Positions 51,100 to 51,581 of a DNA stretch of 64,000 nucleotides are shown here, in pieces (position 1 is the first letter of the stretch; each line of letters opens with the position of its first letter). Location of the stretch: the NCBI RefSeq assembly GCF_024223415.1, contig NZ_CP100500.1; one strand, written 5' to 3'. The stretch comes from Escherichia coli. GTDB lineage: Bacteria > Pseudomonadota > Gammaproteobacteria > Enterobacterales > Enterobacteriaceae. The position numbers and the translations under genes are program-made. The notes below the pieces were generated by a model, which did no database searches, was not told where the DNA came from, and was given only the letters and a program-made list of their open reading frames with translations.

Positions 51100-51127
51100 T
51101 TTACAGCGGCGCGTCATTTGATATGAT
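51100..51127 (+). promoter_or_regulatory. tyrT promoter (-35 TTTACA 51100-51105, -10 TATGAT 51122-51127, GC-rich discriminator)
   Basis: TTTACAGCGGCGCGTCATTTGATATGATGCGCCCCGCTTCCCGATAAGGG matches classic tyrT promoter. Confidence 0.75.
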
Positions 51128-51177
51128 GCGCCCCGCTTCCCGATAAGGGAGCAGGCCAGTAAAAAGCATTACCCCGT

Positions 51178-51262
51178 GGTGGGGTTCCCGAGCGGCCAAA
51201 GGGAGCAGACTGTAAATCTGCCGTCATCGACTTCGAAGGTTCGAATCCTTCCCCCACCACCA
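51178..51262 (+). tRNA. tyrT: tRNA-Tyr (anticodon GUA)
   Basis: 85-nt GGTGGGGTTCCCGAGCGGCCAAAGGGAGCAGACTGTAAATCTGCCGTCATCGACTTCGAAGGTTCGAATCCTTCCCCCACCACCA. Confidence 0.95.
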
Positions 51263-51318
51263 TCACTTTTCAAAAGTCCCTGAACTCTCAAGCGAATCCG
51301 CAATTAAATATTCTGCCC

Positions 51319-51420
51319 ATGCGGGGAAGGATGAGAAGCTTCGACCAAGGTTCGACTCGAGCGCCAGCGAGAGAGCGTTGCCGCAGGCAACGACCCGAAG
51401 GGCGAAGCGCGCAGCGCTGA
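51319..51420 (+). CDS. tpr: Protamine-like protein Tpr (33 aa, Arg-rich) in tyrT 3-prime repeat region
   Basis: [33 protein letters not shown]; location downstream of tyrT. Confidence 0.45.
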
Positions 51421-51422
51421 GT

Positions 51423-51441
51423 AATCCTTCCCCCACCACCA
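51423..51441 (+). repeat. Repeat of tRNA-Tyr 3-prime end (AATCCTTCCCCCACCACCA)
   Basis: Identical to last 19 nt of the tRNA at 51244-51262. Confidence 0.6.
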
Positions 51442-51581
51442 TCGCTTCCTGAAATAATCAAAACATGTTACTCCGAGCTAATTTTGCCCGATGGCACCAC
51501 GTTTACCGGACCTACAATATCCTCCCCTGTAGGTCGGATAAGCGAAGCGCATCCGACAACTCACCCCGCACCGTGCCCATA

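Follow-up and report, generated by a model that had tools for sequence, protein, structure and literature searches.

Organization of the tyrT locus

Between purU and narI, the 64-kb stretch of Escherichia coli DNA analysed here (64,000 nt; hereafter the window) carries the E. coli tyrT operon in a minimal natural form, consisting of a promoter, a leader, a single tRNA-Tyr1 gene and a single RtT unit, or tRNA-linked repeat (TLR), with the tpr reading frame inside it. The features of the interval and its two neighbours are as follows, with positions given in the window.

50176..51018, + strand: purU (formyltetrahydrofolate deformylase) CDS, a 280-aa ORF; upstream neighbour of the tyrT locus
51100..51127, + strand: predicted tyrT promoter (consensus scan, 10 of 12 matches)
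51135..51177, + strand: 5' leader of the precursor tRNA, with the same sequence as the tyrT leader of K-12; presumed start, approximate
51178..51262, + strand: single tRNA-Tyr(GTA) gene, 85 nt (ARAGORN, Rfam)
51263..51441, + strand: RtT unit (TLR), 179 nt (Rfam RF00391, spacing of the 19-mer)
51331..51420, + strand: tpr reading frame, 29 aa, protamine-like and Arg-rich (ORF inside the RtT unit)
51423..51441, + strand: second copy of the 19-nt tRNA 3' end, AATCCTTCCCCCACCACCA (exact match)
51500..51544, no strand assigned: imperfect palindrome resembling a REP element, between the tyrT locus and narI (inverted repeat, 17-nt arms, 82% complementary)
51585..51606, - strand: hairpin of an intrinsic terminator, belonging to the convergent narGHJI operon (terminator scan; 9-bp stem, 5 GC pairs, T run)
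51625..52302, - strand: narI (nitrate reductase gamma subunit) CDS, a 225-aa ORF; downstream neighbour

The purU label follows the annotation that SCU-316, K-12 and further genomes have at the same position, and narI is so annotated in all genomes compared. Position 51100, at which a first-pass annotation of this DNA had begun the locus, proved to be the first base of the tyrT promoter's -35 hexamer (TTTACA, 51100-51105), which is separated by a 16-nt spacer from a -10 hexamer (TATGAT, 51122-51127) with a TG upstream of it and a GC-rich stretch, GCGCCCCGC, after it. The promoter sequence is identical to that upstream of tyrT in K-12, and the same sequence has been employed as a tyrT promoter homology arm (PMC2887954); the identity with K-12 suggests that 51100-51127 functions as a strong sigma-70 promoter. 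The palindrome at 51500..51544, in which 11 nt lie between the arms, is REP-like, and on our own reading of its sequence it is probably a REP element.

ARAGORN identified a tRNA-Tyr with anticodon GTA, a long variable arm and an encoded CCA at 51178-51262 on the + strand, and the Rfam tRNA model (RF00005), whose gathering score is 29, matched it with 53.4 bits. As the first-pass annotation had stated, this is the one full tRNA-Tyr present, ARAGORN having found no second anywhere in the 64 kb. An exact 85-mer search showed the gene to be identical at 85 of 85 positions to both tyrT and tyrV of K-12 and, with its GTA cloverleaf, long variable arm, K-12 sequence and position between purU and narI, it is a tRNA gene of the tyrT/tyrV type. 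The tandem of the K-12 type has two tRNA-Tyr genes behind one promoter, whereas the window has one, and the 34-nt spacer that can separate two such genes, CCTCAAGCATTACCTCAAAATTTTAATTACCCCT, was not found anywhere in the 64-kb window. Since gene, leader and promoter are all 100% identical to those of K-12, the tRNA is presumably expressed, processed and charged with tyrosine.

Downstream of the tRNA gene, the RtT RNA model of Rfam (RF00391) matched at 51310-51441 over its full length (all 130 model positions, 1-130), and the 137.5 bits scored (gathering score 45; E = 2e-28) place the unit in the RtT family. The 19-mer AATCCTTCCCCCACCACCA, for which 0 chance matches are expected in the window, occurs there exactly twice, at 51244-51262, where it forms the tRNA gene's 3' end, and at 51423-51441, and the two copies are 179 nt apart. 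TLRs are defined as units lying directly downstream of a tRNA gene, the last 19 nt of which repeat the tRNA 3' end (PMC8144298), and the unit in the window indeed ends in a copy identical at 19 of 19 positions; it can also be aligned to the rttR unit of K-12. The Arg-rich frame and the single downstream copy of the 19-nt repeat had likewise been noted at first pass, and the frame at 51331-51420 is intact and identical at 29 of 29 residues to Tpr of K-12 (b1229). As this frame lies inside a repeat that is conserved at the nucleotide level, however, its conservation does not show that it encodes a protein. The predicted fold of the RtT unit was not more stable than that of shuffled sequence (z = -1.04) and so adds nothing on function, and Tandem Repeats Finder returned nothing relevant at the locus, because just one unit of each module is left.

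The TLRs that occur in E. coli operons for tRNA and rRNA were first described by Egan & Landy (1978; see also Rudd 1999; reviewed in PMC8144298), and the RtT of K-12 is cited in that review and in PMC3318445 as a stable RNA processed from the tyrT primary transcript (Bosl & Kersten, 1991). K-12 has 22 TLRs at ten loci, without an established function, and a phenotype first ascribed to rtT RNA was later reassigned to a neighbouring ORF (PMC8144298). The unit in the window is of the same kind as TLRs generally, but there is one of it, compared with four at this locus in K-12. A 59-aa ORF runs antisense to the RtT unit (51263-51442, - strand). It matches the type of frame called ychS in K-12, where that annotation sits within the repeat stretch of the locus, and is most likely a by-product of the repeat rather than a gene.

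Comparison with K-12 and with the closest relatives

In K-12 the locus has the order tyrT-tyrV-rttR-tpr (b1231, b1230, b4425, b1229). It has in common with the window the flanking genes purU and narI, the promoter, the leader, the 85-nt tRNA gene, an RtT unit with an identical Tpr, the 19-nt tRNA 3' end that closes each repeat and, downstream, the REP element and the narI terminator. The tandem of tyrT and tyrV that the first-pass annotation had given for K-12 is correct, the pair being 209 bp apart in MG1655, a distance made up of a divergent 175-nt RtT-like unit and the 34-nt leader that precedes tyrV. Exact mapping of the tRNA gene and the 19-mer gives the K-12 locus as a string of modules, namely tyrT, the 175-nt RtT-like unit, the 34-nt leader, tyrV and three RtT units of 178 nt, with either the 19-nt repeat or the full 85-nt repeat at each module boundary. 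The alignment to K-12 tyrTV-tpr that had been proposed as a check thus sets one tRNA gene and one RtT unit, of 179 nt, against two tRNA genes, a divergent unit and three RtT units, and the region between purU and narI is accordingly 606 bp long in the window compared with 1,255 bp in K-12. In the E. coli B lineage, a K-12-like front end is combined with one downstream RtT unit.

The closest relatives of the window have a different organization from that of K-12. The nearest complete genomes among the matches listed, SCU-316, GPEC1446, KV7, O78 strain 3 and NCTC9112, are all 100.0% identical to the window over 24 kb (identity being reported to one decimal), and all five carry a tRNA-Tyr doublet of compact form, in which a second, identical tRNA-Tyr gene begins 34 nt after the first and is followed by the same single 179-nt RtT unit as in the window. 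SCU-316, KV7, O78 strain 3 and NCTC9112 are 118-119 bp longer than the window over the 24 kb; in GPEC1446 the excess is about 1.6 kb and the alignment falls into three pieces, which means that some further difference exists there. In direct alignments over 24 kb, a gap of 119 bp separates the window from SCU-316, KV7 and NCTC9112 alike; to it are added 2 SNPs for SCU-316, 4 for KV7 and, for NCTC9112, 4 together with a 1-nt indel. Across the locus itself (approximately 640 nt), all bases of the window and SCU-316 are identical save for a clean gap, which corresponds to one 85-nt tRNA-Tyr gene plus the 34-nt spacer and maps within the tRNA repeat at 51178..51262; because the repeats are identical, the exact crossover point cannot be located. 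The compact doublet is therefore what this lineage usually carries, and the immediate ancestor of the arrangement in the window appears, from these alignments, to have been the compact doublet with its 34-nt spacer and single 179-nt RtT unit, and not the K-12 layout. The first-pass proposal, that a unit had been lost by recombination between repeats or that strain variation was involved, fits the 119-bp gap separating the window from near-identical relatives and the presence of single-copy loci in unrelated backgrounds. Both the loss of a unit and strain variation are thus supported; the K-12-like ancestor from which it had derived that loss is not.

We consider it likely that the strain lost one 119-bp unit from an ancestral doublet, by recombination or slippage, and so came to have a minimal locus and two tRNA-Tyr genes in total at little cost in fitness. 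Unequal exchange and slippage classically act on direct repeats such as these, identical over 85 bp and spaced 119 bp apart, with scarless deletion as the product, and Russell et al. (1970; J Mol Biol 47:1) are reported to have found that tyrT doublets segregate singlets through unequal recombination. The starting state would have been a 119-bp tandem unit, formed by two tRNA-Tyr genes of identical sequence, each of 85 bp, with 34 nt between them. One unit would then have been deleted precisely and without a scar, either by unequal homologous crossing-over of sister chromosomes or by slippage during replication of the identical genes, one tRNA-Tyr gene remaining at the locus, and the total would have fallen from three tRNA-Tyr genes to two, the copy in the window and tyrU. 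On grounds of parsimony, loss in the strain of the window is favoured by the fact that all five of the closest complete genomes among the matches listed are doublets.

The same fact is, however, what would be expected if the true locus were a doublet and its 119-bp tandem unit, which contains a perfect repeat of 85 bp, had been merged into one copy during assembly, a collapse for which the first-pass annotation had proposed a read-depth check. In size the gap equals one repeat unit exactly, as a collapse would give; apart from the further difference in GPEC1446, no other structural difference from those relatives was seen in 24 kb; and among 5,426 complete E. coli genomes none gave a 100% single-piece match to the window. 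We nevertheless regard such an artefact as improbable. The same single-copy layout is present in the independently assembled genomes 2009C_3689, HUM3355, strain 48, W619, SFE8 and 23CRST011, and genomes with two tRNA-Tyr copies, which are the singlets, made up 8 of 60 in a systematic sample. The window runs unbroken across the locus and, within the 64 kb, contains neither a contig break nor an orphaned piece of the spacer, and a repeat of 85 bp is, by our reasoning, below the read lengths typical of modern sequencing.

A further possibility, to which we give very little weight, is that the single-copy form is older in this part of the tree, or was acquired horizontally from a singlet strain, so that the deletion is not private to the strain of the window. 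In the tree of flanking sequences, the sister clade of the window and SCU-316 (23CRST011, strain 48 and W619) is indeed wholly singlet. These three genomes, however, differ by 7-16 flank SNPs and have the 178-nt RtT, whereas the window has 0 flank SNPs relative to the doublet SCU-316 and has the 179-nt RtT type in common with it. Moreover, the panel from which the tree was built had been picked to include singlets, which it therefore over-represents, and most genomes at 99.0-99.6% identity among the matches listed are doublets. That the RtT unit of the window is of 179 nt, like that of its doublet relatives, and not of 178 nt, like that of the nearest singlets, argues against an imported singlet allele in particular; horizontal import was rejected, there being no donor SNPs and the RtT type being that of the doublet relatives. 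As the tree is small and non-random and has a singlet sister group, the direction of change at its deeper nodes is not settled, and it is for the strain of the window itself that we favour deletion from a compact doublet.

Recurrence of the single-copy form in E. coli

The layout of one tRNA gene and one RtT unit was also found in the complete genomes 2009C_3689, SFE8, HUM3355, strain 48, W619 and 23CRST011. The annotation of these loci is the same as that of the window (tRNA-Tyr, RtT sRNA), but in the 1,863 nt of flank they have 7-24 SNPs relative to it, and most have an RtT of 178 nt where the window has one of 179 nt. Judged by these flanks, they are independent occurrences.

For a panel of 15 loci, small, non-random and chosen to include singlets, module counts were set against the SNPs found in the 1,863 nt of unique flank. 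Within it, three groups combine 0 flank SNPs with different architectures: the window, with one tRNA gene, and SCU-316, with two; 2009C_3689, with one, and 7_14_50A, with two; and IZSBS22 (one tRNA gene and two RtT units), S10 (two and two) and d1-58 (two and one). The panel of 15 loci thus points to at least three independent changes of module without a single SNP in the flanks. From these zero-SNP groups it follows that gain and loss of modules is recurrent and faster than point substitution nearby, and the tyrT locus is accordingly a modular array in which changes of unit number outpace mutation of the flanks.

A search of the 5,426 complete E. coli genomes with the 85-nt gene located it at 15,731 chromosomal places, distributed over 5,425 genomes at 2.9 per genome on average. 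The total number of tRNA-Tyr genes was three in 49 of 60 rows of a systematic sample, two in 8, four in 2 and one in the remaining 1, these frequencies being subject to the tendency of the similarity search to join or split pieces of a repeat unpredictably. Singlets would on this basis make up roughly 13% of complete genomes (8 of 60, or about 6-24%), partly by inheritance within clones such as ST131. The exact layout of the window had 1 occurrence in a 60-row sample. A search of the literature for natural variants differing in tyrTV copy number gave nothing specific, and PMC9981150 makes no mention of tyr genes. The single-copy form of tyrT is a common and recurrent strain polymorphism, most likely arising from recombination between identical repeats, and as such is ordinary.

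Other arrangements were seen at the same position. In ST131 genomes (as in NZ_CP051615.1, positions 3503-6092), similarity to the window stops right after the tRNA, and in place of any RtT unit the single tRNA-Tyr gene has, 17 nt beyond it, genes coding for a fatty acid desaturase, a sterol desaturase and a PAP2 phosphatase, which look like an island or a replacement abutting the tRNA 3' end. EC100, APEC E19019 and FP4, which are among the ExPEC/APEC strains, have a transposase of the IS4 family inside the purU-narI interval, and this interval exceeds that of the compact doublet form by about 1.3 kb. In 23CRST011 (locus L005), the distance from the last 19-mer to the far, start-codon end of narI, the narI CDS included, is 907 nt compared with 861 nt; the 46-nt insertion is probably a variation in the number of REP elements. 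Finally, NZ_CP043205.1, from the O16:H48 strain PG20180054 (mouse gut, K-12 serotype), gave two tRNA-Tyr places, whereas other K-12 genomes gave three. It may be another independent tyrTV singlet, arisen during gut colonization.

tRNA dosage and further features of the window

Of the three tRNA-Tyr genes of E. coli, tyrT and tyrV are under one promoter and tyrU belongs to the tufB-proximal operon (PMC2887954). If tyrU, which lies outside the window, is present as usual, the strain studied here should have two tRNA-Tyr genes and not three. In MG1655(DE3), 33 of 43 tRNA transcription units could be deleted, most with little effect on growth, and tyrT-tyrV is not among the ten tRNA units listed as essential (PMC11480407). 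As tRNA units can be deleted in this way and tyrT-tyrV is not essential, the loss of one copy is probably close to neutral. The dosage of tRNA-Tyr could conceivably matter under phage pressure, since retron-Eco7 targets tRNA-Tyr (PMC11555353). It is a far more speculative step, and one that we think most unlikely, to suppose that the tyrT/TLR array is kept as a source of high-rate standing variation in the dosage of tRNA-Tyr (and RtT) that is open to selection. Were it so, selection might act on dosage through, for example, growth-rate demands, or through toxins and defence systems directed against tRNA-Tyr, of which retron-Eco7 is one. The same mechanism cannot restore a second tRNA gene once it is lost, however, which argues against a true switch.

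The first-pass annotation had expected little novelty here, and we concur: the locus, its repeats, their instability and its single-copy variants are all already described in the literature or annotated in public genomes. The window is a tidy example of repeat-mediated instability of copy number, which extends the classical knowledge of the tyrT locus without changing it. Counts of tRNA genes at tandem, repeat-flanked loci vary among close strains and are also prone to collapse in assembly, and a tRNA copy number that comes from one assembly alone is best checked against the reads.

Elsewhere in the window there are features of prophage type. A tRNA-Lys (ttt) and a tRNA-Met (cat) gene lie 1 nt apart at 10797-10950 on the - strand, next to a gene for late antiterminator Q, in a region with 94-97% identity to lambdoid prophages (PPompW-type, Stx2-converting phages and vB_EcoM-606R7). 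The pair is prophage-borne and ordinary for lambdoid phages. Rfam also identified, within about 7 kb, sok antitoxin RNA, DicF, isrK and C4 antisense RNA (cluster coordinates 14421-14596, - strand, and 20953-21004, 21239-21315 and 21340-21427, all + strand), a cluster consistent with a prophage or cryptic prophage in the first third of the window.
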